From positions 103,976,001 through 104,040,000 of the forward strand of contig NW_024704742.1 in NCBI RefSeq assembly GCF_018977255.1: 64,000 bases of DNA, in the 5' to 3' direction. This stretch comes from Callorhinchus milii. Lineage: Eukaryota. Within the stretch, counting starts at the first letter, position 1. The number at the start of each line of letters is the position of its first letter. The translations under genes and the position numbers were made by a program. The notes beneath the pieces were generated by a model. That model worked only from the letters and a program-made list of their open reading frames with translations. It did no database searches and was not told where the DNA came from. Of the stretch, positions 13,602 to 48,306 are shown piece after piece.

Positions 13602-13732
13602 TTATTTCTTCTTCTTCTTGCTCTTTTTGCCACCTTCTCCTGGTTGTGTGTTCTGATCCCCTCCTCCAGATTTCTGGGTCCTGGTCTTCAGCTTGGGAAT
13701 CATCTCTGCTACGTACAACATCACTGCCTTAC
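13602..13732 (-). CDS. SRP19: SRP19 exon 5 (last), 131 bp including TAA
   Basis: cccctcag|GT AAG GCA GTG ATG...; (R)KAVMLYVAEMIPKLKTRTQKSGGGDQNTQPGEGGKKSKKKKK*. Confidence 0.95.
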
Positions 13733-14566
13733 CTGAGGGGATTCAAAAGTTTCCAACACATCTTCAGTGCCAATAAACATTTCAGATAGTAGAGTGGTTC
13801 TCCAACACTCGGAGCACTATAAACTTCAAAGCTAGAACTATGCAATAGTTTTGAACATGACATCAATACCAAGATTGATCATTTTAAGTTTCCCTAAAAT
13901 TAAACATGGCAACTTAAAGAAATGCTAATTGCCATCTGAATTATTGTCTTTTCAAACATATACAACAGAATTTTGCAGAACATATAGTCAGTCCAAATCA
14001 ACCTAGGCTGTAGAACAGAAAGGTGGCAGATTGAAGCCATAATAATCTGTTTGTCAGCAGATTAACTTTATTGAATTATTAGAAAAAGGTTGGAATGCAA
14101 ATAAAAACATTATCATGTTTCCCAGACTTTGAGACCAATCAAAACTCAATTTGTTTGAAAGTTGCTCCTGCTTATAAAATGGAGATGAAAGGAACTAGAA
14201 TAAGTAGATACGGGCCAATTTAGTAAACTTTCAATATGTATCATAATGAATTACGGCGAGCACAGAATCAGGATGGGCTCCTGATACACGTTTGCGTGGA
14301 ACACCTCTTATGATTTGGGCTTCCAGATGATTGGATGAGGTACCAGAAAAGTGCCTGTGGCTATGATAGTCACCGTCGCCTGGAGATAGGGAATTTAAGG
14401 TTCAAACAATTTCTTTTAAAGATCGAGGAAATATTTCAAACTAAGTTCAGTGACAACCAAGAAACAAAATCTTAACCATCCAAACCTCTGCCAGCAGAAT
14501 CAACTTGCCTCTCCAGTGCAAAATAATCAACTCAGAAACACAATATTTGGCCTCCAAAACTCATAA

Positions 14567-15040
14567 CAACAACAACAACAAGATTCCATTTATTGAGCGC
14601 CTTTCACGTCGGAAGGACGTCCCAAGGCGCTGTACAGTTGGGTCAGGACCCGAGCAAGGGGGAAATGGTCAGGGTGAGGGAAGGGAGGGAGCGAGGAAGG
14701 GGGAAATGGTCAGGGTGAGGGGAGGGAAGGGAAGGAGCGAGGAGGGGGTAGAGAGTTGAGAGGAGAGCTGAAGGCACAGTCAAAGAGAAAGGTCTTGAGA
14801 CCGGCCTTGAAGGAGGAAAGGGAGGAGGCGGCGAAGGCACTGGGGGATGGAGTTCCAGAGCCTGGGGGCTGAGAGGCTGAAGTCCCGGCCACCGATGGTA
14901 GGGCAGTTGGGGCGGGGGATGTGGAGCAGACCGGAGCCAGAGGAACGGAGGGTACGGGCAGGTAGGTAGGGGGATAGTAGGTCGGAGAGGTAGGAGGGAG
15001 CGAGGCCGTGAATGGCCTTGTAGGTGAGGATGAGGATGAG
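14567..15040 (-). mobile_element. Young L2 3' fragment in SRP19 intron 4
   Basis: Near-identical reverse complement of about 11420-11855, with (CAA)n tail. Confidence 0.9.
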
Positions 15041-15107
15041 CCGTAAGTTTGCAATATAAATAGAATACCATGACTAGCACAACCCGAGTGATAAAACATA
15101 AACTTAC

Positions 15108-15216
15108 GTGTAGGAAACTGTTCAAAACATAAGGTTCCATCTTCATTTTTTAGTTGAATACGTATTCTGCCTCTGAACTGAACATCTCTGTTCCATTCTC
15201 GTGGGTATAGTTTATT
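15108..15216 (-). CDS. SRP19: SRP19 exon 4, 109 bp
   Basis: cttttcag|AAT AAA CTA...ACA C|gtaagt; NKLYPREWNRDVQFRGRIRIQLKNEDGTLCFEQFPT. Confidence 0.95.
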
Positions 15217-15318
15217 CTGAAAAGAGTTTAAAAGATGTGTAAGTATAGACCATTTATTTGATTCTTTTTTGAAGATCCTTCAGAAATAGCACAAATATTA
15301 ATTTAAAATGAAGCATAC

Positions 15319-15390
15319 CTCGACAACCACATTTAGTCCTGCTGCTGTGCAAACATCTCGAATCTCTCCAAATGTTGGGTTTTCAACAGC
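15319..15390 (-). CDS. SRP19: SRP19 exon 3, 72 bp
   Basis: gtgcag|GCT GTT GAA...GTC GAG|gtatgc; AVENPTFGEIRDVCTAAGLNVVVE. Confidence 0.95.
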
Positions 15391-15439
15391 CTGCACACAA
15401 CAAAAAAGCATCACAAAAGACCAACAGATTTTGCAATAG

Positions 15440-15783
15440 AAATGGAATACAAAACGAGGGGATTTGACTGGGTAAATAGTGAGAAGCTACGTCCACTGAT
15501 TAGGGAATCAGTAACAAGAAGACATAGATATAACATAGTCATAAGAGTCAGAATTTAGGAGATTTTTTAATAGTTATTGGGATGGAAATGTCCTGTCAAG
15601 CGGGTGGTAGAGACAGAGTCGATTGTGAGTTTCCAGAGAGAAGTAATTAAATATATGAAAAATTAAGGCTTGAGATGGGGCCTGTGTATAGGGCCGGGCA
15701 GTGGGATTGAAAGCACAACTTGCTCTGAGCTCCGATGCAGACTCAATAGGCCTAATGGCCTCCATTCTATGATTTTATGATCT
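15440..15783 (+). mobile_element. CR1 3' fragment in SRP19 intron 2
   Basis: Similar to 51355-51720; ends ttctatgattttatga. Confidence 0.7.
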
Positions 15784-15807
15784 AGAAAACACAGTATCAA
15801 TCTTCAC

Positions 15808-15883
15808 CTTTTCTACTGGTATTCTCCTGCCATCTGAGAGGGTCTTCTTGTTGTTTATATATGCTGGATATATACAAATAAAC
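15808..15883 (-). CDS. SRP19: SRP19 exon 2, 76 bp
   Basis: tttgcag|G TTT ATT TGT...GAA AAG|gtgaag; FICIYPAYINNKKTLSDGRRIPVEK (SRP19 signature). Confidence 0.95.
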
Positions 15884-22322: not shown

Positions 22323-25300
22323 TCAAACAGAAGTCACTAAATAGGATCCAGAATGACGTTTTGGGCTTTGATTTCCACTTGATTCGGTGCTTTCAGGTTT
22401 AGAGTTCTCCTTTTTCTTGGTGCTGGTTACAGGGGTTGGAATCTGTGATGGTCTGGAGGCGCTGCTGTCGGTGCTGCTTTTACGAGGACTGGGGATATAG
22501 TTGAATGGGGTAACTCTGGCAGCTACGGTACCGCTAGGTGAGCTGTGCTTGCTTGAGCTGTTTGAACTAAAAGGCGTACGCTCGGTGACGATATTGTTCT
22601 CGATCTCCGGTGAAGTAGCAGAACTGTTCACAGCAGACTTCAATTCTGTTGCCTTCTCGGGACTATCCGTCTGAAGAAATGAATTCAAGCGGTGCTCCAT
22701 TCGTGGAGCTCGAGGAGGGGTTCCACGTCCTGGCATTTGTCTATTCTGTGAATCACCTGAACCCTCATCATCTGGAGACATTTCGGGCAAATCATCGATA
22801 ACTGGGGGTGTATTAGTTGATGGGGATTTTCCTGGCCGAGGGTTGTTTATTGGACAGTCTTCAATTCTCACCCACACATCCTCAGTCTTTGACACAGGAG
22901 GAGCCATCTGGTAAACTAAACTTTTGGATTCATTACTATTTGCAGCTGAACTCTGAGGGTGGCTGCTCATTTGTAGAATTTCATTATCTTTTATTTTTCT
23001 CCAGGTTCCCCTCAAGGGCACTGCACTTTCCTTGGGTTGTTTATTGCCGTGGGTAAAACTTCCGAGATGCGGCTTCTCATCTTCACTTTTGGCCTTTTCA
23101 CTCGATTCTGAAGAAGCTGACAGAATTGATGAGGAGCTCCCTGTTCTTCGCCATGTGCTTACTCGAGGAAGGGATGAGGAATGTTTGCTATGTTCACGTT
23201 TCCATGTTCCTGATCTGTTCACAGGAAGCCTCGAAGGACTTTCAGAATGAGAACGAGCTATGTCAGGCCTCCTCATTGCCCTCCCATCTAAATATTCTGC
23301 AGTGAGGTTCTGATTTGGAGGTACTTTCCTCCAACTGCTGGTTTGGTTGGATAAATGACTTAGCATCATATCTTGATGCTGAGATGGACTTAAAACTGGA
23401 GTCTGGGTTTGTGGTCTGGTTGGCGAGGCAGGTCTGGAGGGCGGCGATAAAGATTCAAAAGAAGTTGATTCCTCTAATTTCCTCCTCAACGTTGGACTCG
23501 GGGCTTCTTTTATAAAAGTTGACTGACGCATTAAAGTGGGTCTCTCCGACCTGTCAGACTCACTGCCACTCGACTTTGTTGAAGACATTCTTGATAGTTC
23601 CACTCTCTTAGGTGGTACAGTGTTATTGGCACCCTGGTTGAATCCCTTAGGGCTTGATTCACTTCTTGTGATAGAAGCTGTGTTCTTTCCTAGATTAGTT
23701 TGCCTTGATGGGGCCTGCTGGCTCAGCGATCTCCCTGGAGATGTGTAAGTCATTCTACCTGATCCTCCAGGTTTAGCTGAGGCAGAACCTGGAGAAGTCG
23801 TCCGTGGCAGCTGTGATATCTTGTTAGTGGGGCTGATCCCATTTCTTCCTGGAGAGATGGAACTTCTACCAGGAGACTGCAACGGTCTAGACAAAGACTG
23901 TGGGGATGGTCTAGAAGGTGTGGAATCTCTGGATCCTGATCTTGAAGATCCTTTACTGCTTGATGCTCCCGGAGTCCCTGTGTGCTTGGCTGTAGGACTT
24001 GGGTCAGGTTTGATTGGGCCTTTGATCCCTCTTGGTGAATTACTTGAATTCTGTCCTGGGCTTGGACTTTTAGAGGCTGCATTTTTGGGTGGAGTCTTCT
24101 TTGGAATAGGGCTGGTGCTGGGTGAGCTGTTCCTTACACCTGGTATGTGAATCATGGTCCTTCCACGTGAGATCATGGGCATGTTTGTCTGTTGGTGGTG
24201 TTTAGCCAGACTAGAAGACTCAACATTGGAACGGGCTTTCCCAGTAATCAAACTTTTATATACTTTTTTACCTCCTCGAATAGCTTTTACATTTTCTTCT
24301 TCATTCTTTCTGTTGTCACTTGTGTTTTTCTCTCCCGGTTTTACAATTTTAGGGCCCTTATTAGAAGTGAAGGGCTTTTCCTCCTGGTCAGGTGTAAGGT
24401 GAAAGGGCGATCCTAGGGAGATACCAGATTTAAGAGACAGGATGGAATCAGAATCAGAAGAACCTTGTCTTGACAGGCAAGCAGCAGCCTGGTGCAAACT
24501 ACTAACTATAGAGTTAGCGCCCTCTTGAATGGCTTTCCAGTCAAAGCTTTCGGAATCCGGAGAGAAAGCCTGTTCTGGAATAGGGCTATGCCCTTGTTCT
24601 CTCATACTCATCCCCTCATCGGTGTCCTCACCACCCAAACTGCCACTATTAGCTGCATTTTCACGTTTACTCTTACCTTTTGCAAAGAGTTTTTTCTTTT
24701 TGGGCATGGCTGAAGTGATACACTCCTGTAGAAGATCATCCTCAGAGTCGATGCTGAGAGAGCTGAGGGAGCTGTTTCGAGAAAAGCACACTGGTGTGTC
24801 TTCCACGTGAAATGATTTGGGAGCATAACCGGAACCCTGGGCTCTATTTACAGGCACTGGTTCTCCCTGTTCAGGCTGAGCCGGTGATTTTTTATTATTG
24901 TTCTCCTGGTCAATATCACTGAGAGAGCTAAGCGAGGAATTGCGGGAAAAGCAGACAGGTGTGTCTTCAATCGCAAAATTTTGCATTTTCTCGTCTGTAA
25001 CAGTATCTCTGACACTCATATCTTTTGCCGTTTGAGAGAAAACCGCCTGTTTTTGTAACTTTGACGGTCCTCGGGCCAGCAAGGACTTGTGACCTGGTTG
25101 TTGCCTTCCAGCGGGGAGCTGACTATTGGGGCGCTGTTCATTGTGACAATTCTTTACATCACCAGCGGCATACTTATCTTTTCTGTCTTTCTCTTTCTTC
25201 AGCTCGGCTTTCTCTTTTGTGAGATCCGTGTCATCATCATCAAAGTCGAGTGAGCTCAGGGAATCATTTCGTGAAAAACAATATGGAGTTCCCTCAATTG

Positions 25301-28300
25301 GAGTATAATGATGTGGGGAGTCGAACACAAACCCACCACGTACACGGTTATCGTTACTCTGTGGTTTATCATGAAAATCCCCACGAGAACCTTTTGTGGG
25401 TTGCAGTTTGCTACACTTTTCCATATCTTTCTTCTTTTCTGAGTTGCTGCCTTCTGCAGAAAAACTACTTGGAAGATCAGACACACTTTGTTCCATTGAC
25501 CTGGTCTTATACTCACTGTTCTTGGGCATTGGTTTCACTGGAGAGGTCGGTTTCCTTTTCTCCGCCTCTTGCTGACTTGCATGATTGACAGGAGACGCTG
25601 ACGGCAGCTGCACCTGATTCATTATTTTCTTAACTCTGTAGGGTTTATGGCTCTTTCCTTTTGGCATAGCAGAGTTTATACATTCAGCTAGAATGTCACC
25701 TTCCTCAGTTTTATCATCATCTTGCCCTGACTGAGGACCAGCATATCCTTTTGCTGCCTCAGCATCGTCCATGCTCCTCCCCTCAGTTGGGATGGTATCT
25801 CTCTTTTCCATTATTGCAGAACGAGTTCCTTCTGAATTTGCCAATTCATTTGGGGGTGACTCGATCGTGAGATCACTTAGTGACGTAGCTGTCGAAAAGT
25901 TTATGGGAGTTCCTTCAACACAATACACTCGGGGCATATCTTCCCGAAATAGATCATGGTTGAAGCTGACGTGCTTTTGAGAATGGATTCTATTTTGATT
26001 GGAGAGAAGTTTGTACACAGGCAACTGACTCGGTTTCCTTGCCACAGGAGGGGGTAACCGTGGTGCATTGCCAGCAGATTTCTTTGCTTTACTTGAAGAT
26101 TTTGTTGGCATGGCTGAAATAATACACTGTTCCAAGATTTCAATATCATCATCGTCATCGTCATCTTCCAACATGTCCTTCTCAGGTTCACCAGCTTTTT
26201 CTACTTTGCATTTAATTTTCTCACTTGTATCTTCCTCCTTATCAGGTTCATCGTTTCTTTGTTCGTCTTCATATACAGGAGGCATAACTCGGAGTTCAAG
26301 ATCTTTCTGAATAAACGGCTCATCAAGACTAAGAGCACTCAAGCTGGATGCACAAGAAACACCATCTGGCGTGTTTTCTGTGGCAAAATGCATCAATATA
26401 TCACTGTCCTGAGGAAGCTGGACTCTTTGAACAGCTGCATTCACAGCCTCTTGCCTGTGACCCGTCTCTCTGCTTTTAACGTTACTCTGTTCCTTGCTTT
26501 TATGCACTTCTCTTTTTAGCTGAGTCGGTTGGGGTGGTGGGGTTTTACTTCTGCTCGGAGGCATCGTTGGCCTGGGCTGTCTGGAAGATCACTTGGACTT
26601 ATGACACCGCTAACCATTTCACTGCAGGGTTCACTCTGAATAGAACTGGCAATTGACTGGCTCTCAAAACTGCCCAGTGAACTGACTGAACTGCATCTAC
26701 TGAAGACCAGAGGAGTTTCTTGCACATAGTGATCTGGTGGGCTCTTCGGAGTCTGAGCTCCACTTTTAGATGGTGATTTGGCACCTGAAGAGAACTCGAC
26801 AGCTTTCTGCCTGGACATGTCAGGCTGAGACACATTGGTGGCATGCAGCCGATTTTGTTTCATTCGTTGGTGATGGGAGGCAGAGGATGTCTCACTTATA
26901 CCTGTTTCATTGGGTAATGCCGCACGATTTTCCTTAAGGTCAATGATCTGCAGAGTGGTTCCATCATCTGATACACGCTTAGCTTGACCACGACCTTCCA
27001 TTTCATCCTCTGAAGACAGTGAAGATAGTGAACTACATCTTGAAAAGCAAATAGGTGTGTCCTCTACACAATAGGTCTGCATAGTTTCTTGGTTAATTAA
27101 AGGAGTCTTACAAGCCGACGATTTCTGTCCCGCGGGGTTAGGGGCAGCTCTAGAATGTGCAGAACTGGGGTGCAGGCAGTTTTGCTGACTAGATTTGCTG
27201 ATTTTGGAGCTTGGTGTGCTGGCACAACTGGATCCTGTGTGATCCTTTGTTGTGCTTTGAGCTGAAGAGCCTTTCGAATACATGAAAGCCTGGTTCTGTG
27301 AAGAGGGAGGAATTTCTGAGGAGTACTTCAAACTGTAGTCGATGGGCTGTTCAACATGGTGCTCCTCTTCTGTAAACTTCATACTGTAGTTTGTGGGCCT
27401 GTCCTCATCAGCCTGCTCTTCTTCAGAGTAACGCTCGCTGTAATTGGTTGGCTTCTCATCTTCATAATCATCCACCTGGCAAATAGACTGGTTCATTCTG
27501 TGCTCAGAATCCACCCGGATCGGCTCGGAGTTGTTGTGCACCCTGGCGCTATAAGAGGAGCAGTCTGACTGGCTAAACCGAGGCTGGAATTTGATGCGAG
27601 ATTCCTCTGCACTGCAGCCACTTTCACAAAACATGGAATAGCCGGAGCTCGGTTTCCTCGACTGTTTGTGTTCATTCCTTTTCATCTCTTCCTCTACAAT
27701 ATGCTTTGGTCGTGCCCATTGTTCATTCTGTGATGGGCTCTGCCGGCCGGAATTTAGTTGTTCATCTGAGTATTTGAGACTGTAGTTAATTGGCGTGTCT
27801 AGCTCAGCATCGTTGTCATCCAGATGATTCGCATTGTGAATTTTGTGGGCGAGATCTGCTGGATATTTTCCATAATTGCAGAACTTACTTTCATCATCCT
27901 CTGAATAAGATTCAATCGATGGTTTCATCTGCCCCCTCTTACCATACCCATCACTGCTGCTAACGCTATTCAAACTATCATTTGATGACCGCTTGTACTC
28001 GTTTTTTCCATAAGGCATGGAGCAGGTTCTGTTGGGGTTTTCAGGTTTATTATAATTAAAAATATTAGAATGGGGGTGAGAGGACGACGCTCGCCTTAGA
28101 CCGGTCCTGTCCTCTGACACACAGTGCAGGTCGGAAGCAGATCCGGAGCTTCTATCCTCAGAGGATAAATGCATATTTGATACCTCTTCTATGACCTTGG
28201 CTATTTGAGCTACACTGGTAGTCATCTGTCTTCCAATTCTTTTAGAAGGATCGGACACAATATCAGATGAATGAAAGGTATCAGTTCCTCTTCGATCTCT

Positions 28301-28898
28301 TTCAGCACTTCGGTCTTTTTCTGCTCTGAAGCCTTCTACACTGCCCCTGCCATCTCTTGAGGACGAAGTCATATATGGCGACAACACAGTCACATTTCCA
28401 GTGTTGAAGCTCTCAGACCTGCATACCCCATCATCATTGTGCCTTCCAGAATCCAAAACATACTCACTGAACCGGCCTGGTTTGTGTCTTGGTTTACTGC
28501 GATGTGATGTTTTGGGGCTCAAATTATCAATATTATCAAAAGTCTCCGATAGCTGTTGAGCATCCAATTCTGCTTCCAGTGCTTTCTGTTTCCTAACATG
28601 TAGAGATGGTAGGCTCGATCCTGGAGACATGATGTTGGCATCTTTATACTTAGCAGGTCTGTTGGCCATTAGGTTTCTCAAAGCTGCAGCACTTCCCATT
28701 GCAATCATTTTATGTTTAGAATGAATTAGATTTTTGAGCATACTAACTGCTCCCATGTCCCACAAAGCCTCCTGGTCCTTGGCATTTCTAGCAGAGAGAT
28801 TCCAAAGGGTTCCACATGCATTACTGACAATAGTCAGGCTATGGGACTTTAAGTGCTGTAGCAATGTCTGTAAGCAGTTATTTTCACGCAAGATTTGC
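22323..28898 (-). CDS. APC: APC last giant exon (legacy exon 15), with an apparent 1-bp frameshift at about 26567
   Basis: ctcctgcag|G CAA ATC TTG. The two ORFs (26516-28891 and 22323-26564) together encode the final armadillo repeats, four 15-aa repeats, seven 20-aa repeats, three SAMP motifs, the basic region, the SQIP EB1 motif and the C-terminal VTSV PDZ ligand. Confidence 0.97.
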
Positions 28899-30144
28899 CT
28901 GCAGGAGAAAGGCAGCCATTTAGAAAAAAATTTTCAAATCAAATCGTTAAAAATACGGCAACTTTATATGGATTACGCTTGCATGCATACATGGATTACA
29001 TTTGCCAAATTCAGTTAACCAATATTTCGAAGTAATTTATTACTGTTCATATTCTCCCCAATTACACGAACATTATCATTGGTCACAATGAGGAAACCAC
29101 AATGTTTATTCATATATTTATATGCCATGGTTAGGTAATAGGTGTTTCAGTTTAAATACATGATCCAAGTTGTTTTTGGGGGGGACTTAAAGATATGAAA
29201 TGGTTTTTTTTAAACAAATCTTATTCATACAATTGTTAAAAAAGGGTTCACAAATAGATGATTAATAACATTTAATCTAAGTGCAATTCTTAATATATTA
29301 AGAACTGTCAATGAAAGAGAACAGCAGTAAAGTATACGACTAGTTCTGTCCGATTATCTGGGCTTGATCTTTGTGACTCCATGGAAAAAGGAACAAAGGC
29401 ATTTGGCTAGATGAAAATGTTTTGCTATAAATAACAATATTGGAAGCATTAGAGGGTAAATAGCAGTGTATTAAATAACCAAGGTGGAATCCTCAGTAGA
29501 GAACAGTCATCTCACTTAACCCATCAGTCCCAAAAGGCATTGGATTTTAAGATTTTTTTTAGCTCACTGTTCAGTATTAACAACAGCAAAGTAAGGACTC
29601 AAATTTAACACGTTGGCATTTGACCTTCAAGGTGCCACTTTGGGAAGAGTAGGGGTGGATGATAATTTACCAGTGTTAAAATTTTTGAGCTATTTTAAAT
29701 TAACAGACAATTTTCCCGACTAAAAATATGATCGTAGTACGGTCTTAATTCAAGAATGCAAGCATTTTACACAAAATACACAATCAATCCACTTTACAAT
29801 ATACTCTGTGAAGCGCTTTTGAGATGTCTCAATGACGTAATAAGGTGCTATATCAAATGCAAGGATTATTATTATTATCTCCATACCCTGATAGCATTGG
29901 AAGAAAGGTACATTCAAGAACAATTTGTTTCTAAGAATGAATGACTAGGGTATTGTAAGCAAGTCCATATGTTAAAATTGGTAGGTGCCATTGGTGTAGC
30001 AGAGGTAAACGACCTATTCCACTGCGGGATATATTTAAGATTTCAGAAAAGGCATTTCTTTCCAAAATTCAAAGGAATGCAACTTGAGCAGAACTATTTT
30101 CACAAAGTAATAGTATTTTTTTCAAATCAAACTATTGCACGTAC

Positions 30145-30359
30145 CTGTGATCTTCATTTGTAGCAATCAGACTGGAAACATTGCGTAGAATACCACCTCC
30201 ACTTTCAATGATGGCCAGTGTATTGGTTTGGCTTCTGTAAGTTAAAGTGCCTACTAAGAAGGCAAGGGCACCATCGACAGCACAAATGTCAGCCTTATTT
30301 TCAGTACAATGTGCAGATAAATTCCACAGAGCACTTAGAACACTCTTTAGAGTTGATTC
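30145..30359 (-). CDS. APC: APC legacy exon 14, 215 bp
   Basis: ttgaag|GAA TCA ACT...CAC AG|gtacgt; ESTLKSVLSALWNLSAH...NEDHR. Confidence 0.96.
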
Positions 30360-30900
30360 CTTCAATAGAATTGAGGGGGACAAAAATTAATGTTCTACAC
30401 TAGAAATTGTTACTATAAATTGTATTGGAAATATTTCAGAATAGCTTCCAAATTATGAACATTTGGTTAATATGAGATTTTTAAATTGAACTTTCCTTAT
30501 TTTCTCTCAAAGAATTTTTAAAATATATTTTAGAAATTTTATAAAATTTACATTTGATAAATACTGTATCTATACAGCTCAAAAGAAGTCTTAATTAAAA
30601 ACAGTGAATAAACATACAATTCTTTCTCATACGTGTTAATAATTTTGAGTGGCATGTCACATGGGTACAAAATGAGTAAAACAATTCTATTGACAGACAA
30701 TTATCCCTCTGAAACATTACAAACACGAGGAAATAATTATTCTTCAGATTTTTTTAATATCAAACCCAATTTAAACTTCAAGAGGATAAAATAGCATATG
30801 GCAGGAAAAAGTCAAAATGTTTCCAGAACACATTTTATAAATATGCTTGACTGAGTAGAGCTGTAATTTTCACTGTCAGTGAAGGGAGATTGTTCCCTAC

Positions 30901-31017
30901 CTTTTTCACATCGAGTGCACATTCCATTAAGGCGCTCACACTTCCAACTTCACGCAAGATCTTTTTACTGTTCACATCTGCTCGCCATGATAAGTTTCTC
31001 AATACACTGGCAATGAC
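30901..31017 (-). CDS. APC: APC legacy exon 13, 117 bp
   Basis: ttccag|GTC ATT GCC...AAA AAG|gtaggg; VIASVLRNLSWRADVNSKKILREVGSVSALMECALDVKK. Confidence 0.96.
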
Positions 31018-31909
31018 CTGGAACAGATCAATAATTCAGTAAATAGGCAGCACTCCAGTGCTTTCCCTGACAAGTTTAACTTATTTTCCATTTATCTTAT
31101 AAATTAGTCTTTATAGATTAACTCTTTCTCGCAGTTGTAGCATACAAGTGATTATGCAAACTCACTATTGTAAAGGTTCTGGTCTGGCACATGGATTGTA
31201 TAAGATGATGAGCTGAGGATTTTCTGATCAATCCAAAGGGATTTCAGCGCTACATAAGATGCTCTGAGACTCAAGGAAGGTGGTCAATAATAGCCAACAT
31301 TTGGACCCTAAAATGCACATTTGCTGGACCGCTGGAGGTCAACCAGTTAAAACTGCATAGTTTGCCACTATGAAGCCCTGGACACCAACGATGCATTATC
31401 ATTTCCTCCTCCGAAAGCAATAGTTCTCGGTCGCAGAAATTTGCGTTATTTACGCTAATTGTGCAATGAACTGGTTTGCAAGAAAATGGGCTTATGCCTA
31501 AACCTTGGTTCTTCACTGCATAATAATAACAATAACAATGAAATGAAGAATTTAAAGATGTTAATCATACCTAGGTTTTAGAAGGAGATGGATGTGATTT
31601 TGGAACAGATTTCTAGATGACAGGGGCATAATTGCTGAAGGCTTGGCTACTAATAGTGAAGCGAATTATCACCAGAGTCAGAAGGAAAAGCCTTGAACGG
31701 GCCAGGACTGGAAGGAATTGAGGGCCATTACATGGATTGGACAATAATCTTAAACCCAATGAGTTTCTGGTAGCGAATGGAGCTTGATGAGAGTGGGGAT
31801 AATGAGTGTGCAGGAGAGAACTCAGGCTCTCAAGCTCTTGATCAGTCGAAGCTCCTGGAGAGTTTAATAGGGAAGCCAGTGAGAAAAATATTCGAAAAAA
31901 AATTGATCC

Positions 31910-32238
31910 TTAATAATAATAATAATAATAATACTTGCATTTGATATAGCACTTTTCACGTCGGGAGGACGTCCCAAAGCGCTTCACAGAACACTGTAAA
32001 GTGAATTGACTGTATATTTGTGGGCGAACGCGGCAGCCAATTACGCACAGCAATGTCCCACAAACAGTCGTAGATTGAAAATGACCAATTTAATTATTGT
32101 TTTTGGTTTTTATTTGGAGGGATTATTATTAGGCGTGTGGAGTAAGGAAACTTGCCCAAGGTTTCGCCCTCTGCCTGGAATTGAACTCAGTTCTCTCGCT
32201 TGCAAAGCGAGTGCTCTAATCACTGAGCTACAGGACTT
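31910..32238 (-). mobile_element. Same tRNA SINE family, internally deleted, (TTA)n tail
   Basis: Head at about 32170-32238 and (AAT)n at 31911-31932. Confidence 0.85.
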
Positions 32239-32975
32239 CACAGGTATGAATTAAGGTATGAATGAAGGTGTGCATTGGAGTGGTGGGGTAGTAAGTGGGT
32301 AAGCAAACTACAAGTGTAGGTCTTGGCAAAGAACCAGATGTTTAAAACCCATCTCAGGGTTAAGCAGCACATCTGGTCCAGCTTGAGCGAGCAGAGAGGT
32401 TGAAGGAAATAGAATAGAAACAAGCAGATGACAAGGAGAAACCACCAGGTTCACCTCAGCGTTGTTAAAAGTTCAGCTACAATTCAGTTATGGCTCACCC
32501 AGGACTTGATGTCACACAGGCTGGTCAATCAAACAACAGTCCAAAATGCGAGAATAAACTTCAATAAATCTGCTTGTACCACTGTCTTCCCATGCTAAAA
32601 TAAATGTCTGTCTCCAATTCAATAGTTCATACTGAATCACATTAAATGGAAGTTCTATATCTTGTCTTATAAATAAGAGGCAGGTTATATTGCTAATGCT
32701 CTCAACCTTTATTTATGCCATTTAGTTTTTTTTAAAAAGCCTATTTTTCAGAAAGATATATTCATCAAATAATGTTTGGTTGCTTCATGTACTTAGAAAA
32801 GATAGACGACTTCAAATGCTTTTAAGTTTATCATGCTTATTTTCAGAGAAATTAATGGAACAGTTGATTTTCAGAATTGCACATGCCGAAGATAGGAACT
32901 GTACACAGTTTAGAGAAATAAAGTGACCTGCCAATGATTAAACTAAAATACTAAAGTGTTTATACATCTTTTTAC

Positions 32976-33053
32976 CTGTTGTAGATCTTCACTTTCCGAT
33001 TTAAGTTGAGCTACCATTGCTCTCATGCAGCCCTTCATAGAACAGAGTGTAGC
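32976..33053 (-). CDS. APC: APC legacy exon 12, 78 bp
   Basis: gacag|GCT ACA CTC...CAA CAG|gtaaaa; ATLCSMKGCMRAMVAQLKSESEDLQQ. Confidence 0.96.
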
Positions 33054-33337
33054 CTGTCAAGAAAAAAACATTACATAAGCAATTCTGGCACTTTGTTGAA
33101 CTTTACTTTGATTAATGTGAAATTGTCAAAACAAGATAACTAAATAATTTCCCTGCAATTGACCAATAATGGCCACAAATTCAACCCACCTTACATTACT
33201 ATACTAGCATGCCATTCCACATGAATGAGTTTGATTTAACTACAACTTCTGTGATAGTTTTTTTTAAAAAAACACGTTCTCAACCTGAGTGTATCAATCA
33301 TGATAATTTGAAATTACATTGTGATAAATTGACCCAC

Positions 33338-33477
33338 CTTATTTGCAACATCCCCAAAGGTTAAATTTGTAAGTGCCATTCCTGCATAGCGGCGCAATGT
33401 GACACTGTAGTGGTCACTGGTGAGTCCATACATTTCACAATCCACTTGCAACAATTCAGCTATAGCCTGTAAACCAC
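33338..33477 (-). CDS. APC: APC legacy exon 11, 140 bp
   Basis: cccag|GT GGT TTA...AAT AAG|gtgggt; GGLQAIAELLQVDCEMYGLTSDHYSVTLRRYAGMALTNLTFGDVANK. Confidence 0.96.
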
Positions 33478-34429
33478 CTGGGAATGAGAATGTCTATGGT
33501 TAAAACAGAGTTTTCATAAAGCTATTTCCAATTAGAAATATCAGAAATAACATGAAAGATATTTTAAAATTTAGCTTTGGTTTGAAACATTAATCCCCTA
33601 ATTTTGTATTTATTTAAGACCATTGCTGTATAATGTTCAAATCACAAACCTGATTAAACAATAGATTTACAACAAATCATTTTCAGTACATATGAGGACT
33701 GCAGTGCAGATATTGCAGTGACAAACAATATTTCGAAGGAAAGCTAAAGGATATGGGCATAGAGGGCCAGAGTGATTTGATATAATATACATCTATATAT
33801 CAATCATCCTGAGAGTCTGACCAAATAACTTTAATAACATATTGTGAAGGACAACAGATTCTATCTATACTTTACATTTCAAGTTTAAAACTATTTTCTC
33901 ATATTTTAGAAACAATTTATTTAATTGCATCTAAAAGCTTATTGATGTTTCCCCTTCTAACATGTTGGCAGTACCAAGGACAAAGGAGGTCAGAATTAGT
34001 AATTGCAGTAGATTTTCTGTGCTGGGCTCAGCTGGTGCAACCTGATCGGATAAAATGCTCTGCAAGACAAGATCATGGCCTTCCGTCTTAGAAACCACAA
34101 TAGATTTATATCAAATTTAGATAATAGGCATTACAAATTAAACTTTTTACTCTACTCTCTTTCCTGGAAGAAATATATAAGCAAACAGCAAGAGAACAAG
34201 GTGAGCTACAGCTTTATTATAATATACCAAACAACTGATGACTATAGATTTCCAAATCAGACAAATACTGCCCACTCCACTCTTATTGCTTACATTATTT
34301 TATTCCCCCATTCCCCAATTAATGGTTCAACCATTAATGTTCTCTACAGCTGCAACTTTGAGTCACAGTCGATCGAGGACACAGCTGCCTCTATCAGTCT
34401 TGTTTACACAACATAAAACAGCTAACATA

Positions 34430-35040
34430 AGGTGCATTCGGTTCGACCCACAGCTATCCTTCCTTCCCCACATCCAGTCCCTGTACCGCTCACCTGGGTT
34501 ACACAAAGCACACCTCGCAGGTCTCCCCAGTGCCACTATTCAAAAACTCCAGCTCATTCAGAACGCTACTGCCTGCATACTGACTGGGACCAAACTCCGT
34601 ACCCACATCTCACCAGTTCTGGCCAGGCTCCACTGGCTCCCCATCACCAAAGGGATCGACTTCAAGATCCCCACACTCGTGTTCAAATCCATTCACTCTC
34701 TGGCACCTCCCTACCTCTCCGACCTCCTCACTCCCCAATCCACCGCCTCCGCTGACTGGCACCGGCCTTCTGCTCGTCCCTCACACCCTCCGGCCTGCCA
34801 TCGGAGGACGCGCTTTCAGCCACTGTGCCCCGAAACTCTGGAACACTTTCCCTCAAACCCCCTGCCTTGCCCCCTCTCTCCCCCTTTTCAAGTCCTGCTG
34901 AAAACCTTCCTCTTCGACTGTGCTTAAGGTCACCTACCACCACCCCCCCATTCTGAGTCAGGCTCTGCCATTGTTAAGCACTCGGAGACGCTGCCCTATG
35001 TGGAGGGCGATATATAAGTGCAAGTTGTTGTTGTCGTTGA
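34430..35040 (+). mobile_element. L2 3' fragment in APC intron 10
   Basis: FDPQLSFLPHI and LHWLPITKGIDFKI peptides plus (GTT)n tail. Confidence 0.85.
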
Positions 35041-35109
35041 TGCATTCTGGTGGAGCAGGACTGATCATTTTTCACACTTTTCTCTTAAGTCACTGCAGCA
35101 GTCTGCCAC

Positions 35110-35776
35110 TGAATGATTGCCAGACTCTGCCACTGCCTCACCTCTCAGGCTGCCAAAACCCTCACCCACGCATTTGTCAGCTCAAGGCTCGATTACTGGA
35201 ACTCCCTCCTCATCGGCCTTCAAAACTCTTCCCTTCACAAGCTGCAGATCATCCAAAACTCTGCAGCTCATGTACTCTCACACACCAGGCTCCGCGACCC
35301 CATCACTCCCACCCTCGCCCGACTCAACCGGCTCCCCATTCCCCAGAGGATCGAGTTCAAGATCCTCGTCCTCACTTTCAAGGCCATCCATGACCTTGCC
35401 CCCTCCTACTTCTCTGACCTGCTGACTCCCTACCAACCTGCCTGCTCCCTCCATTCAGCCGACTCTGGTCTGCTCCATGTCTCCTACCCAACCCGCCCTA
35501 CCATCAGTGGTCGGGCTTTCAGCCTCTCTGCCCCCACCCTCTGGAACTCCATCCCACGGTCCCTTCTCCTCGCTTCCTCCCTTGCCTCCCTCAAGGTCGG
35601 TCTCAAGACCCTTCTTTTCAATCATGCCTTCGGTCGCCCTCCCACCTCTCTGCCTTCCCTCACCCCTACACCACCACTCCCCCATGCTCGGGTCCCGACA
35701 CCTGACTGTTCAGCGCTTTGGGACGTCCTCCCGACATGAAAGGTGCTCTATAAATGTAATTTTGTTGTTGTTGTCG
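35110..35776 (+). mobile_element. L2 3' fragment in APC intron 10 (second, tandem)
   Basis: ORF 35113-35739 SSRLDYWNSLL...APTLWNSIP and an L2 tail. Confidence 0.88.
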
Positions 35777-36001
35777 TCTCTATTGAACAACCTGGCAAAA
35801 TTCATTCAATAGGGCTGTATGCGATTTCAAAATCAATTAAGACAAGAAATTAAATTGATGTCCCTTAAATAGGAGTCCGACAGGAGGCTACAAATCTCTT
35901 TTCTCCCAAACTCTGAAACAAAACATCAGGAATTTTAATATTTGGTGCAGGTTGTTTTTGATTACATGAAACGAGGGAAACAAATGTTGACATTATCTTA
36001 C

Positions 36002-36097
36002 CTAGTTCATTCATTGCATGCCTGTGTTCTTCTTCGAAGGAAAGCTTCATAAGTACACACACTGCAGGACATATCTGGTGTTCTACTGGAGATGGCA
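36002..36097 (-). CDS. APC: APC legacy exon 10, 96 bp
   Basis: gatatag|TG CCA TCT...CTA G|gtaaga; PSPVEHQICPAVCVLMKLSFEEEHRHAMNEL. Confidence 0.95.
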
Positions 36098-36409
36098 CTA
36101 TATCAATATAATGCACATATAAATAAACAGGATTCAATTCAGATTGTGTACTTGTGCTACCATGGATTCTGTCAACTAAGGTCTAGGTTTATACAAATTT
36201 TTTTTTCAGTATTATATTCCCACCCCTAAACACACACATTTTACTGAACTCTAAAATAGATCAACTTCACTCTGGCTAATAAATATTAATCAAATGAATG
36301 CACTACTTGGCAATAATAAAAGTAACTTGTATCATTACTCTTACCAAACTTAACAAAAGCTTATTATATTATAGTCACATCTACGTTTTCTGCCTCATTG
36401 CTCGTCGCG

Positions 36410-36843
36410 ATCTGGTCAGACCACACCTAGAGAACTACATACAGTTCTCTTTACTACGACATAACAGGGCTGCGCAGGCTTTCGAGATAGTGCAGCGTAA
36501 CAAGGATGATCTCCAGTCAGAGGAATGAGCAAAGATTAGACAAGCTAAGGAGTTGACCCAGAACAGAATTTGAGGAAGCACCAAGACAGTACACCTAGGT
36601 TTAGAGTTTAGTTTAGAGTTGCAAAGGCCAATTTCAGGACAGATACCAGTAAGTTTTCTTTCCCTCACGGGTAATTACAACTGGAACAGGTTGACTGGAA
36701 GAGTAGTTGAGGCCAGGACACTGGATTAATTATGAAAGCAGTTTGGTGCTATGATGGGAGGACGATAGGGTGGCTATTCTGGATGGATGAGATCAGATGG
36801 CCAAAGGACCTTCTTCATCCAAGCAAACTGTGATCTTGTGAGA
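36410..36843 (+). mobile_element. CR1-like 3' fragment of a second tail type (related pieces at about 42995-43138 + and 5722-5865 -)
   Basis: LVRPHLENYIQF peptide and a shared tail gatgagatcagatgg...ccttcttca...atcttgtga. Confidence 0.65.
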
Positions 36844-37283
36844 TTTCACTAATCTGGTCTTTTCCCTATTTCCTCATCTCATGACAATGAAGAGGATGGA
36901 GCCTGCTGTAAAATTGCTTTGCAACGATTACCCTACCTACCTACATACAGACACACACATGAACACAGACTGACTTACAGAGAGGAAGAGAGAAAGACTC
37001 TCCAGCCAGGGTTGATGCATGATCATTGCAATCAGAAACCCTGGCTGATTTTGCCTTCACAAGCACAGGGCTTTCAAGCCAATTGAATCACCCATATCCA
37101 AACCAATCTGGTTTAAATCACCTCACAGCACTGACTGGAAATGAACTTGACCATTTTGGTCTGAAAGGCTCAACTGATCACTGAATTCAGCTCACCGAGC
37201 TGTTAGACAAGCCTATAGTTCATTCTTTTAAAATAGTTTATTTTAAATACAAAAATGCAATGATACCCCCAAAAAAGTCGTAC

Positions 37284-37662
37284 TTGGATTTTTGTCTTGG
37301 TCCACACCACGTTCGTGTGCCTCCTGCCATTCCCAACACGTCTCACAATAAGCACGGATTTGTTCTAATAGGTGAAGAACACGGGTCTCCCGTCTGCCGC
37401 GCTTGTCGTCTGGCTGCGAATGGATGATATTGTGTAGTGCAGCACTGGCCCTTGCACGGGCCTCCTTGCTACCACGTGAATTGCCCAGCAGCACAGAGTC
37501 TTTATCATTGCCGTGCAAAAGCTGTATGAGCAGCGGAAGACAACCAGACTGACGCATAGCTATACAGCTGTCCTGAGAACTAGACATTGCTAGCAAAGTT
37601 CGTGACATATCATCCTTGTCGTGTGTACCAAGCATCGATAGCAGCGAGTATACCATTTCCAC
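37284..37662 (-). CDS. APC: APC legacy exon 9, 379 bp
   Basis: ccatag|GTG GAA ATG...CCA A|gtacga; VEMVYSLLSMLGTHDKDDMSR...DQDKNP. Confidence 0.96.
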
Positions 37663-38184
37663 CTATGGCCCAAGTGAACCAAACAGGTTAAATTCTGTCT
37701 AAGAAACAAGGTTAACAATAGCACAGGCTGAAATTAAATCAAACTACTGAGCATTTCATGTAAAGAACATAACACAAGAGTTTTTGTTTCAAATCTTTTG
37801 AGCTGCATTGAATTTATGAACATTTTCTGGTAATAATTTGTGTTGGCAATGATACTTACCACCTGCACGCAGCAGGACATTGGATACAACAATTCCCACT
37901 AGTTCAACTGGCTTTGATCAATAGTATTACATTTATCCGTACACTCAATACTCCAATAGAAGGACGACAATGCAATTAGACACGATCAAAAGGTTCATAT
38001 CCACTCAAATGGGATCAATTCATTGATTTTTGTCAAGAGCTTTCTCTGCTTCATTAGGAAATACTATAAAGTACTGCACAACTATTTCTCTGGCTATGAT
38101 CACTTAGATTACACAATATGATGTATGAGCCAAATGACTCACAAATTTGAGATAATACAATTAATCCATTTTGTTATTAACAGA

Positions 38185-38505
38185 TACAATACAAAATTAC
38201 ATTTGTATAGCGACTTTCACAATGGGAGGATGTCCCAAGGCGCTGGACAGTCAGGGATTTTGACCCGAGCTGGGGGTCGGGTTCGGGGAGGATGGAGGGT
38301 GGACTAAGGCTTGGTCGAAGAGGAGGTTTTGAGATGAGCCTTGAAAGAGGCAAGGGAGAGAGCGAGGCGAAGGGAATGTGGGATGGAGTTCCATAGGGTG
38401 GGGGCAGAAAGGCTGAAGGCCTGGCCACCGATGGTGGAGCGGGCCAGATGGGGGATGTGGAGTAAACTGGAGCCCGCTGAGCGGAGGGAGTGGACAGGTA
38501 GGATC
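38185..38505 (-). mobile_element. L2 3' end in APC intron 8
   Basis: Reverse-complement L2 3' UTR (cagcgccttgggacatc...gtgaaagtcgctatacaaatg). Confidence 0.8.
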
Positions 38506-39901
38506 TAAACAGTATGTTGCTTGTCAGTAAAATCAAGCAAGAATTCAAAAGTAACTTACTTGGGAATCAGCAGGTTAGGGTAACGTAGAATGCTTATATT
38601 TTGTATAGCATAACCCCAGCCATAGAGGCAATAATCTGGTTTTCTATTCACAATTCAGTGACTGGCTCTACCAGTGACACATATTTTAGAAATGCAATTT
38701 AATTCAGACTTTTATACACTTCAAAAATCAAAATTATCAGCAAATCCTGTAACCCAGCAAATGGATTAAATAACAAAATCTAATAGTGTATTTTACTTTT
38801 TTGTCAAAAAGAAAACCAAGGTTTAGAAACTGGATTTTCCACAATCACTGCCTCTTCCTTCAGTCTCGGTAAGATAATTTGAGCCACAGATTTCATCACA
38901 GACCTCCACTGATATGCTTTCATGACAAGCTGACAGGGAGGTATGCTTCAGTGTGGTGGGCTTGGCCCCACTAGTTGTTCCTCTCCCTCGAGATGAAGCG
39001 TTCCAGCACCACAGGGTGCTCCAATCTATTGTGCCCCCTGACAAGACAGCAGAGCAATGCTGACTATGAGGAATCAATCTTCGTTGACTGCTGAGCCTGT
39101 GCTTCTCAGCATTGCAGAGTGACGGTGGTATATTACTAGATCACTCTGGTAAGAATTGTGTGCAACAGCTAAAAATTCACTGCAAATCATTACAGAAAGC
39201 CAATTTTAAAGTTTAACAAGCATACATGGATATCGTCACTTGTCTATTCAGTTATTTAATCCTATTTACTGATCCCGTTGCTAATTTATTACCCATTCAG
39301 CAGCACGACCGAGTTCAAATTTAAAATAAAGTCACATTAGAATCATAGCTTTAGCAAACAAATCCATGTTCAAAGAGCAGAAAACTAGCTACAGCAAAGC
39401 AAGCAAAGCTACTTTTGTAGATGAGATTAGAATTAGTAGTAACATGAAGAAATAAATTATAACATCTGGATCATCGTCAGAACTCTTGAGAATTGCTCAC
39501 CTTTCCCTTCGTTATTCAAAATAGTATTTTGCATTTTGAATTTTCATCATGTAAGAATGAATTATTAAATACTTTTATGCGTTCAGGAAAATTATTCTGC
39601 TGCGAGATCAGCAAATTGGGGCCCTTAACTTTTGCTAGAATTCTTTCAGATTTCTGACACAATTAGATTAAAATACTGTATAGTCCTTACTGTGATCTTT
39701 AACTTCTGTCGACATATTCAATGATTGTCAATCATTACATAAAGCACCATTTTAAAAATACTCAAAAGGACACAGTAAGGAACATTACATGCATTTGTTA
39801 ATAACAGCAAAACATACTGATAAAGCAGCCAAAGCACTGTTAAAATTGATGTATTAGAAAAAATGCAGTGTAGCGACCTGTAGTCTGGAATCTTCGGTTA
39901 C

Positions 39902-40000
39902 CTTGGTACCCAGGTGACTTGTCAGTCTTCGAGGAACTGAGTAAGAACTACTACAGCTCATCACACTAGCAGCGTCTTGCTCAACCCGTGCCCCTGAACC
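39902..40000 (-). CDS. APC: APC legacy exon 8, 99 bp
   Basis: ttttag|GGT TCA GGG...ACC AAG|gtaacc; GSGARVEQDAASVMSCSSSYSVPRRLTSHLGTK. Confidence 0.95.
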
Positions 40001-40186
40001 CTAAAACATACAAAAAAGGATTAGAAGCGTTAAACCACCTCATCAATAATACAATATTTCTGGAAATGTAATCTTGCATGAAATTGTGAAAATGATTCAC
40101 GGTGCCCACTTCATTAAAACTACTGTGGCACAGTGGTTAGAGCACTCTCCTTGCAAGCGAGAGGACATGGGTTCCATTCCCGGGCA

Positions 40187-42095
40187 ACAACAACAACATC
40201 AACTTTACATTTGCATACGCCTTTCACGTCGGGAGAATGTCCCAAGGCGCTGGACAATCGATGTTTCGGACCCAAGTTGGGGATCGGGGAGGGTGGAGGG
40301 AGGGCGGGGTGGGGAAGGAGGGTGACTGAAGGCACGGTCGAAGACAAGAATCTTGAGACGGGGGGGGGTGGGGGTGAGGCAGAGCAACTGTGGGATGGAG
40401 TTCCAGAGGTGGGGGCAGAGTGGATGAAGGCCTACCTGCCAATGGTGGGGCAGGCGAGACGGGGACGTAAAGCAGGCTGGAGCCTGCTGAGCGGAGGGAG
40501 CAGGCAGGTTGGTAGGGTTAGGAGGTCAGAGAGGTAGGGGGAGCAAAGCCATGGAGGGCTTTGAAGATGAGGACCACAATATTGAATTATATGCTCTGTA
40601 TCAGGGGAGCCAGTGGAGACGGGCGAGGATGGGGCTGATGGGGTCTCGGAGCCTGGTGCAGGAGGGACACGGGCTGCAGAGTTCTGGATGATCTGCAGCC
40701 TGTGGAGGGAGGAGTTCGGGAGGTCGACAAACAGGGAGTTTGCATCGTCAAGCCTGGATGTTATGAATGCGGGTATGAGGGTCTTGACGGCCTGCAGTGT
40801 GAGACAGTGGTGGGAGCTGGGCAATGTAGCAGAGGTGGGGGAAGGCAGAGCGGGTCATGGCACAGATGTGGGATAGAAAGGATAGTTGAGGGTCAAACAA
40901 GGTGTCATGGTTCTGGACTGGCTTAGTAAGGTGGAATGAGCATCCTTGGATGGTGATGCTGTCAGTGCCTGAGGTGTGGATGTGCTGACGGGAGCCAAGC
41001 AGGAGGGCCTTAGTCTTGTTAATAATAAAAATAATCCATGCATTTGACACAGCACTCTTCATGTCTTCTAGACGTCTCAAAGCGCTTCATAGAAGATACT
41101 GAAAGTGAATTATTTTTTTTGGGAGCGAAACGCGGCAGCCAACTGCACACAGCAGTGTACCCACAAACAGTCGTGGATTGAAGTGACCAATTTATTATTG
41201 TTTTTTTTCTTGAGGGATTATTATCAGGTGTGTGGAGTAAGGAAACTCGGCCAGGGTTTCGCCCTGCCGGGTATCAAATACTGGTCTCTCACTTATGAAG
41301 CGAGTGCTTTAACCACTGAAATACAGGACTCCACGTTGACGTTCAACTGAAGAAAGTTAGCTCTCATCCAGGACTTGATGTCTGACAGACATTCTGTCAG
41401 GACAGTAGTGTTCCTGGAGTTGAGGGTGGAGGCAGAGAGATAGAGTTGGGTGTCATCCGCATACATATTGACTCCACGTCTGCTGATGATGTCACCAAGA
41501 GGAAGCATATTGATATTGAAAAGGAGGGGACCAAGGACAGAGCCCTGAAGAACTCTGCACTAGATGGTGCGGGAGCTAGAGGAAAAGTTATTTGTGGAGA
41601 TGAAGTGGAGACAGAGTGAGTGGTACGATCTGAACCATTCAAGGACAAAACCATGAAGGTTGAGGTGAGAAGAGAGGCGGTGGAGGAGGATTGAGAGGTC
41701 AACATAGGAACAGGAGTAGGCCATTCGGCCCTTCGAGTTTGTTGCCCATTTAATTAGATCACGGCTGATCTATACCTCAACTAATCCTTTCAATTCTAAT
41801 TTACCATTTTCTCCGCATATCCCTGACCTACCAAAAATCTATCAACGGTATCAAAGGCAGCAGAGAATCAAGGAGAACGAGGAGGCAGAAGGAGCCGTGT
41901 TGCAGATAGACAGAATGTCGTTCGTCATTTTGACCAGAGCTGTTTCTGTGCTGTGGATGGCATGGAAGCCCGATTGGAGGGGTTCCTGAAGGGAGAGGAA
42001 GGAGCGAAGCTGTGAAACAACGACTCATTCCAGGACCTTGAAAAGGAAAGGGAGGTTGGAGATGGGGCAGTAGTTTGAGAGCAGTGATGGGTCCA
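40187..42095 (-). mobile_element. L2 (about 1.9 kb) inserted into a SINE and itself carrying nested inserts
   Basis: (CAA)n tail at 40187; ITSRLDDANSL and [10 protein letters not shown] peptides; GGGCA at both flanks (40182-40186 and 42096-42100). Confidence 0.85.
41020..41331 (-). mobile_element. Same tRNA SINE family, nested in L2
   Basis: Head and tail recognisable; L2 sequence resumes on both sides. Confidence 0.85.
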
Positions 42096-42402
42096 GGGCA
42101 GGGCGAAGCCTTAGGCAAGGTTCCTTACTCCACACACTTTTTTACCTAGCAGTAAGTAGGAACCCAGTTGTTAGTCAATTGGCGGATCGCTTTTCCGGGG
42201 GTAATAATCCCTTCAAAAAAAACCAAAAATAATAATGTGGTCACTGAATCGACGACTGTGGGACACTGTTGTGCACAATTGGCTGCCGCATTTTTCCCAC
42301 AAAATATACAGTCACTACACTTTAAAGTATATTCTGTGAAGCGCTTTGAGACGTCTAGAAGACATGATAATGCGCTATATCAAATGCAAGGATTATTATT
42401 AT
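42096..42402 (+). mobile_element. Body and tail of a tRNA SINE whose head lies at about 40122-40186
   Basis: Starts gggcgaagccttaggcaagg, the sequence that follows the B box in intact copies. Confidence 0.85.
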
Positions 42403-44707
42403 AGGAGGATATAGATTACAAGAAGAAGAGGGAACTTGGTTGTGGTCAATACAGAACAAGAGCATTATTTTCCCATGTTCTGGAACTAGAAAAACACGGG
42501 CACAAAATGCTTCTTCAATACTAACTGATAAAATACAATGCAGGTAGAACAAAACAAAAAAACTCAACATTTATACAGATTTAATAATTTAACTGCAGCT
42601 GTATGTGATGACAGGTCATTCAACCTTGGCAAAAATGCCGGGCAATTCACTTGCAAAACTGTAGAAAGATTTATCTGGAAAGATACACACATGAATCTTT
42701 TAACATTTCATCTGTTTGAGATATAAGCATATCACCTACTCATTAGCCTGTGTAAATCTTTTTAGATACTGCAAATGCAAATCAATTCTTATTATAAAAT
42801 CCAACTTGAAAATAATTGTATCCAAATTCTACATAACACTCAAAATGGGGTAGAATTATTTTTACAGTATAAAAATTATTGCACACGATTTAATATATTC
42901 TCCTTAGGGGTGGCTCAACAGTTGCAAAGCTAATGTAGAAGATCGAAATTGTGATGCATTCAACACGAGTGTAATTTACGATTGAAACAGATGACCAAGA
43001 AGGGTGGTTGAGGCCAGAACCTGAGACTCATTTAAAAAGCAGCTTGATGCTGTGGTGGGAGGCTGATAGGGTGGTTATTCTGGAGGGATGAGATCAGATG
43101 GGCAAAAGAGCCTTCTTCAACCGAAGAGATCTTGTGAGAAGATTTTCCAAGGGATGCATCTTCCAGTCCAGGGTGGGTCAGCTAGTGTGTTAACCAAGAC
43201 ATGGCACTAACAGTATCAAAGATAGGTTGGGCAGTCTCCTCATGATGTAAATAAGGGCAGAGTTTAGGATAATGAAGATAGAACAGATAAAATGCCATAT
43301 TCCATTTGTAACCAGGATGTGAATTATGAACCATTTACAGCATTAAGCTACAAAAGAAGATTGATAAAGAGCAGGAATAAAAATAAAAATACTGTAATAT
43401 CTGTGATCCAACATTTGAAACTGTCAGATCAATTTTACTTCCAACAATACTGGAGCTTGAGTTACATATAAATTATAAATGAATATTTGTAGCACAGTAC
43501 TTTAAAGAGATTTGCAATATCTTGGAGCACAGACCTACAGAAACTGAGATTTACCCACTGCAGAATGTACCCTGCTATCAAACCAACAATGGCAGCACAC
43601 ACCCTTTAATGCTGTAATTTAGTGCTTCCTGTTCTGATCTAAACATTGAATGATTATTCCTAAAAAGACACTTCAGGATGCATTATCAACACTGATCAGC
43701 AAGGAAATAAACAGGAAGTCATCAATCTGATACAACCAATCCTTTAATCCTCGTTAATGTGATGTTTAGCTCACCATTTTGCCACTCGCTGAATTTGATG
43801 TAAAATAAACCCAGTTCAGTTTTTGCTGCTTGTGGCAGTGCTGCTTCTGCCCCCCAGCTAAACATTTGCTGCTGCTGCTACCTTAAGCAATGAAAATCCT
43901 TCACACAACGGGGTACAGGTACAAATTGAATGCAGCGGCCACTGGGAGAGGGACGGCGTGTTTGATGAGTGTCAGAGACACAAGCTAAGCATCAGATAAC
44001 ACAGCAATCACTGAAGATCAGCACATAATGAGTGAGCTTTTAGATGGATTGCGTAATCAGATCCACCCTACAAAGCATCTGTTCTCTGCTCTGCTCTAAT
44101 GGATTGCAAAGCCAAGGAAACCATTATTACTAGCCTTGATTGGATTTTTTTTCAATTTTGTTTTCATGGTCATATAAGGGTCTTTTGCTGAATACTGATA
44201 TTTTACTGAATATATAAATATGTGCCTCAAAGGGTCGATAATAGGGTTCAACGTAAAACAAAGTTTAAATTCAGCTAATCTGAACATTATAATCAAAACA
44301 GCAAGCCTACAATTTACATCCGGCCATCACCCTTCTTAACCCTTTGTGGTACTCTCTTTGCACATCAGTCTAAAAACTGTATTGTTAGCATGAACTATAA
44401 ATGCGCATACCAACAACACCAACAAACAACAAATTCCAAACATATCCAGTATTATTTTCATCATATTTTAGAATATTTAATAAAATTTTCATGGAATCAA
44501 GTTCAGGAAAATATATTTATCAGAACAATTGAGTACTTTGAGCTGCAGAGGATTAACCTAAACGATATTTCGAAGAGTACATTTATAAAAATACTCACTA
44601 TACTTCAGTTACTTAGGATGCAAACCCAGAAACAAGAAATGCACCAAATCCACCCCTGCCAGCAACCTTGTAATTCATAAGAAAAGGATTAAAATACCGT
44701 GGCTTAC

Positions 44708-44815
44708 CTGGCCACTCCCTGTGGTACCCATGCTGGCTTCTGTTGTTTCCTGACAGTCACTCGGCCCTTCTGCATCACGTGGCACCGGCTGTTCATGCTT
44801 ATTTTGCGATGCCTT
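44708..44815 (-). CDS. APC: APC legacy exon 7, 108 bp (105 bp with the NAGNAG acceptor)
   Basis: taaacag|AAG GCA TCG...GGC CAG|gtaagc; KASQNKHEQPVPRDAEG...GSGQ. Confidence 0.9.
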
Positions 44816-48222: not shown

Positions 48223-48306
48223 CTCGGATTCCGTTGTCTGGGACTGCAAGTGCTGTCGTAAACGAAGCATGTCCTTTTCGATTTGCTGAATTCGTATCAC
48301 CCTCAT
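48223..48306 (-). CDS. APC: APC legacy exon 6, 84 bp
   Basis: ctgcag|ATG AGG GTG...TCC GAG|gtcagt; MRVIRIQQIEKDMLRLRQHLQSQTTESE. Confidence 0.95.

Follow-up and report, generated by a model that had tools for sequence, protein, structure and literature searches.

We found that the last coding exon of the APC gene of the elephant shark (Callorhinchus milii) is one base short in the RefSeq assembly GCF_018977255.1, and that its reading frame is broken at the position equivalent to human Gln1429-Thr1430. The window analysed is a stretch of 64,000 nucleotides (contig NW_024704742.1, positions 103,976,001 to 104,040,000 of the forward strand), and coordinates are given as positions within it. The evidence makes it highly probable that the break arose in the consensus of this assembly as an everyday sequencing error rather than as a true mutation. 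With the same high confidence, and jointly with the dropped consensus base, we regard the locus as the ordinary APC gene of the elephant shark, present once and functional. One base would have been lost from the assembly consensus midway along the long last exon of a working gene, and the reads behind the assembly would carry the intact allele. The break is most likely no biological feature.

The APC locus and the missing base

The minus strand of the window carries the last coding exon of APC, which starts at 28898, just after an AG acceptor, and ends with the stop codon at 22323 (coding part with the stop included, 22323..28898). The exon starts in phase 2 and its 6,576 nt are one base short of whole codons; these values had been given in a preliminary description of the sequence and came out the same when they were recomputed. 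Using APC isoform X3 of C. milii (XP_007895594.1, 2,849 residues) as the reference, we found twelve upstream APC coding exons on the same strand (30145..59288), which encode residues 78-658, have AG/GT ends as expected and are all unbroken. Downstream of APC, exons 2-5 of SRP19 (13602..15883, minus strand) served as an internal control; their phases are consistent and they chain in frame, and the first coding exon of SRP19 was not found. Two REEP5-like exons on the plus strand (about 2416-2554 and 7290-7460) face the SRP19 exons. The SRP19 and REEP5-like exons were named from their motifs, and the order APC, SRP19, REEP5 is that of the human genes. The window sits on a piece of more than 103 Mb, which suggests a chromosome-scale assembly.

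The top match of the homologue search was C. milii APC XP_007895594.1, with 100% identity over the searched region, and shark and ray APC proteins reached 81-83% identity in the same search. Pfam analysis of both exon halves together gave four APC_15aa, two plus five APC_r and three SAMP matches, as well as APC_basic and EB1_binding. The domain set, the best matches and the adjoining SRP19 point to the orthologous vertebrate APC rather than APC2, because the APC2-like proteins among the matches listed reached only 36-38%.

The missing-base site lies at 26567..26569 on the minus strand, at Gln1435-Thr1436 of isoform X3, and the missing base is an A or a G. When the site was read again, the minus strand gave CCA GGC CAA CG ATG CCT CCG, with TT at 26567-26568 of the plus strand, exactly as previously described. 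The upstream frame (26516..28933) ends in SPGQRCLRAEVKPHHPNRLS-stop, with its premature TAA at 26518-26516 (26516..26518, minus strand) after 16 foreign residues, and the predicted truncated product has 1,451 residues in isoform X3 numbering. The second frame (22323..26588) carries TMPPSRS and is open through the normal end GSYLVTSV-stop. The place of the shifted-frame stop and the 1,413 open codons counted from the Met after the break, both stated before, also proved correct, and the downstream residues are conserved. We tried all single-base insertions and found that two of them restore the same-species peptide, CAA ACG (missing A) and CAG ACG (missing G). A missing A would belong to a run of three, and a missing G to no run. 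The initial reading of one lost base is upheld, but the loss of an A from a run of three is not, as CAA ACG and CAG ACG both fit. Since the protein is the same for a missing A or a missing G, the term "homopolymer error" is a guess at the cause.

Both exon halves match isoform X3 without any difference, the part before the break (26569..28898, minus strand) over residues 659-1434 and the part after it (22323..26567, minus strand) over residues 1436-2849, where 1,414/1,414 residues are identical. In total, 2,770/2,772 isoform X3 residues map exactly onto the window; only residue 566 and one residue whose codon is interrupted by an intron do not. The 12 upstream APC exons and SRP19 exons 2-5 yielded no further coding indel. 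This is not the pattern of a pseudogene: the lesion is single, the downstream half is intact, and the lesion is absent from 9/9 C. milii models. Such near-complete identity without further lesions indicates that the gene is not long dead.

Domain consequence and comparison with known alleles and errors

In this exon, the end of the armadillo region precedes the break, as do the four 15-residue motifs and two of the 20-residue repeats placed by Pfam. The other five 20-residue repeats follow it, with the three SAMP motifs, the basic and EB1-binding domains and the C-terminal VTSV. This placement agrees with the earlier claim that a truncation at this point keeps the 15-residue motifs and two 20-residue repeats and loses all SAMP motifs. 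The Gln at the break is 1,415 residues from the C-terminus in the human APC isoform and in C. milii isoform X3 alike. With a human canonical APC length of 2,843 residues, the equal C-terminal distance gives codon 1429, in accordance with the original assignment of the break to human Q1429/T1430 within the mutation cluster region.

According to the available part of PMC3787794, the mutation cluster region comprises codons 1282-1581, or 10.6% of the coding sequence; truncations in it leave one to three 20-residue repeats and no SAMP motif, and codon 1429 is among eight human hotspots, at 50-fold over the average. The SAMP repeats are the Axin-binding sites removed by such mutations, as stated in the accessible part of PMC3983206. 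The break has the features of a cluster-region truncation, with human codon 1429/1430 affected, two 20-residue repeats kept and no SAMP motif left. Because the cluster region takes up 10.6% of the coding sequence, this position is a modest coincidence; a random coding indel falls there about one time in ten.

The break can be compared with three kinds of known lesion. The human cluster-region alleles, as far as the available part of PMC3787794 describes them, affect the same codon 1429/1430, with two 20-residue repeats left and SAMP lost. They have been confirmed in tumours or patients, whereas the allele of the window is known from one consensus only and is contradicted by the same-species models. 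The zebrafish apc MCR allele is a truncation in the same region of the fish APC, and it was induced and verified, whereas the window allele is known from sequence alone (zebrafish data from the available part of the review PMC8112447). The gene-breaking assembly indels in the accessible part of PMC8574707 likewise consist of one isolated missing base with conserved protein on both sides; those assemblies are microbial and protist PacBio assemblies in which most deletions removed a G or C from runs of at least four, whereas the run here is at most three.

Intact APC models and the cause of the break

All nine C. milii APC models (RefSeq XP_007895588/93/94/95 and five UniProt A0A4W3 entries) read SPGQTMPP at the site, with no X and with the normal C-terminus, and no low-quality flag stands in their shown (shortened) names. 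As they are isoforms, probably from one older source sequence, they were counted as one witness, and this same-species evidence is at the protein level only. In annotation pipelines, a model patched over a missing base usually shows an X or a dropped residue, which indicates that the sequence behind the C. milii models has the base. XP_007895594.1 and its eight sister models are the same as the window over 2,770/2,772 residues; they differ from it in being unbroken at Gln1435-Thr1436 and at residue 566, which is Gln in the models and the conserved Lys in the window (30961-30963, minus strand). Lys is present at this residue in 112/120 listed homologues, while seven are without the motif and one is C. 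milii isoform X3 itself. The difference at residue 566 implies that the source of the older models differs from the window; either the residue is polymorphic or the older sequence is wrong there.

At the junction itself, Gln-Thr is kept in 120/120 listed homologues, and 114 further proteins gave 108 with Gln-Thr, one with His-Thr and five without the motif, many of the rows being isoforms and not independent. Protein searches over 427-3,885 residues returned no split or truncated C. milii APC entry among the matches listed, and the searches with the narrower length ranges of 777-2,475 and 427-1,360 residues listed no transcript-derived one either; such blanks are weak evidence. They neither bear out nor contradict the earlier claim that automated annotation would split APC here.

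A consensus error is favoured because the same-species models carry the intact protein; at the protein level, they supply the intact independent sequence that is expected for an assembly indel. The errors that typically persist in long-read assemblies are single-base indels, which truncate predicted proteins, and more than 70% of them were in homopolymers in six microbial and protist genomes, according to the available part of PMC8574707. A rough prior, with an assumed consensus quality of 30-60 and an assumed carrier frequency of 1 in 1,000 to 1 in 10,000, put an error ahead of a carrier by odds of 9:1 to about 20,000:1. Some points stand against an error. In the absence of a second coding indel, the window gives no sign of an indel-rich assembly, and the run of three is short, with no run at all if the G is missing. 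The window has the conserved residue at 566, so the older sequence may have errors of its own, and the prior rests on assumed numbers, of which the least favourable setting gives only 9:1. Broken APC models are not rare in databases, 5/120 listed rows being flagged low quality, in a search whose length filter favoured broken models. Among the 24 public runs listed, 14 of one organism contained 0.38-0.97 of the exon's sampled words, and 12 runs from three studies, apparently of C. milii, contained 0.77-0.97; these shares are too coarse for the site, as one missing base affects about 0.5% of the words and the best runs lack 3%. No RNA run holding the exon was on record among the runs listed.

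The main alternative, which we consider unlikely, is that the animal was heterozygous for a real and rare allele, whether from the germline or from a somatic change in the sampled tissue, and that the haploid consensus happened to represent it. The product of such an allele would be an APC of 1,451 residues that keeps two 20-residue repeats and lacks SAMP motifs, as with a human polyposis allele, and with the stop in the last exon the mRNA should escape nonsense-mediated decay. The difference from the older models at residue 566 fits this explanation, in that the window may represent another haplotype or animal, and so does the finding of no further coding indel in the window. However, human carriers of truncating APC alleles number about 1 in 10,000, and with such carriers rare, a single consensus indel in 8.5 kb is far likelier on the assumed inputs. 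Zebrafish heterozygous for an allele of this kind reach adulthood and develop intestinal adenomas, as reported in the available part of PMC8112447, so a heterozygous shark carrier is biologically possible. The 50-fold excess at human codon 1429 also speaks for an allele, but the hotspot is not described as a deletion in the available part of PMC3787794, and a cluster region covering 10.6% of the coding sequence makes the location weak support. There is only a small chance that the sequenced elephant shark carried a truncating APC allele at the codon equivalent to a human colorectal-cancer hotspot.

A truncation that is fixed or common in the species, with the C-terminal half lost homozygously and perhaps covered by APC2, is very improbable. 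What speaks for it directly is only the window's own sequence, and short APC models in three rays indicate that broken models occur in cartilaginous fish; but the ray models break further downstream and keep the SAMP domain match, the nine C. milii models are full length, and there are 0 differences in the 1,414 downstream residues. In zebrafish, homozygous carriers of a truncation in this region do not survive beyond 96 hours, according to the available part of PMC8112447, and this lethality makes a fixed loss very unlikely. It is also scarcely credible that the short DNA is real and that the frame is rescued by a -1 ribosomal slip or a small cryptic intron. The two frames overlap by 70 nt, and at least 12 GT...AG pairs of frame-restoring length exist. 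A -1 ribosomal frameshift was rejected because the slippery heptamer is absent from the overlap of the two frames, and no X-XXY-YYZ slippery site was found in 26516-26640. For a cryptic intron, the acceptors are weak (pyrimidine share at most 0.6) and at least 131 nt of conserved coding sequence would be removed. No gap at the junction suggesting rescue was seen among the listed homologues, and neither a ribosomal slip nor a cryptic intron is needed, because intact models exist. With the consensus error retained as the explanation, the preliminary order of causes (a consensus error ahead of a recent heterozygous allele, and a fixed pseudogene discarded) holds, and the homopolymer cause that came with it corresponds to only one of the two possible lesions.

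Significance and other features of the window

If the break is an error, the finding has value for curation. Vertebrate gene studies often take C. milii as an outgroup, and APC would be falsely scored as broken in screens for gene loss or cancer-gene variants that rely on this sequence. A real allele would amount to a natural polyposis-type mutation of APC in a cartilaginous fish and to a wild counterpart of familial adenomatous polyposis, and tumour predisposition in this group would become testable. Should the allele also be present in other individuals, a slowly evolving, long-lived vertebrate would tolerate a polyposis-type allele. The curation reading is far more likely than a real allele. 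A search by title and abstract, with paywalled papers and supplements outside its scope, found no published account of this APC site in the elephant shark.

Several other features were observed in the window. In one APC exon, the donor of isoform X1 lies about 24 nt beyond that of isoform X3 (about 39875-39902, minus strand), which adds eight residues. About 1 kb of G-rich tandem repeats with periods of 9-123 and strong GC skew (17100-18160) separates the APC 3' end from SRP19 exon 2 and occupies the place expected for the first exon or first intron of SRP19. An open frame of 579 codons at 10035-11774 on the plus strand is LINE reverse transcriptase-like, the family being judged by eye, and related repeat pieces lie near 14565-15037, 34223-35777, 40123-42402, 46252-46583 and 59947-61041.

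The APC models of other cartilaginous fish also showed irregularities. Those of two Mobula species lose their match to Hemitrygon APC at a common position, near its residue 1930, and continue into a foreign tail that is almost identical in both; both are flagged low quality. With two assemblies sharing it, this break may reflect a true event in the lineage, for example an insertion, a rearrangement or a truncated copy. The Hypanus sabinus APC models end near residue 1615, just past the first SAMP motif. Hemitrygon APC is full length, and the Mobula and Hypanus representatives keep the SAMP domain match. In Scyliorhinus torazame, the name "signal recognition particle 19 kDa protein" has been given to a 2,812-residue protein that carries APC domains, and this misnaming probably comes from a merged APC-SRP19 gene model.
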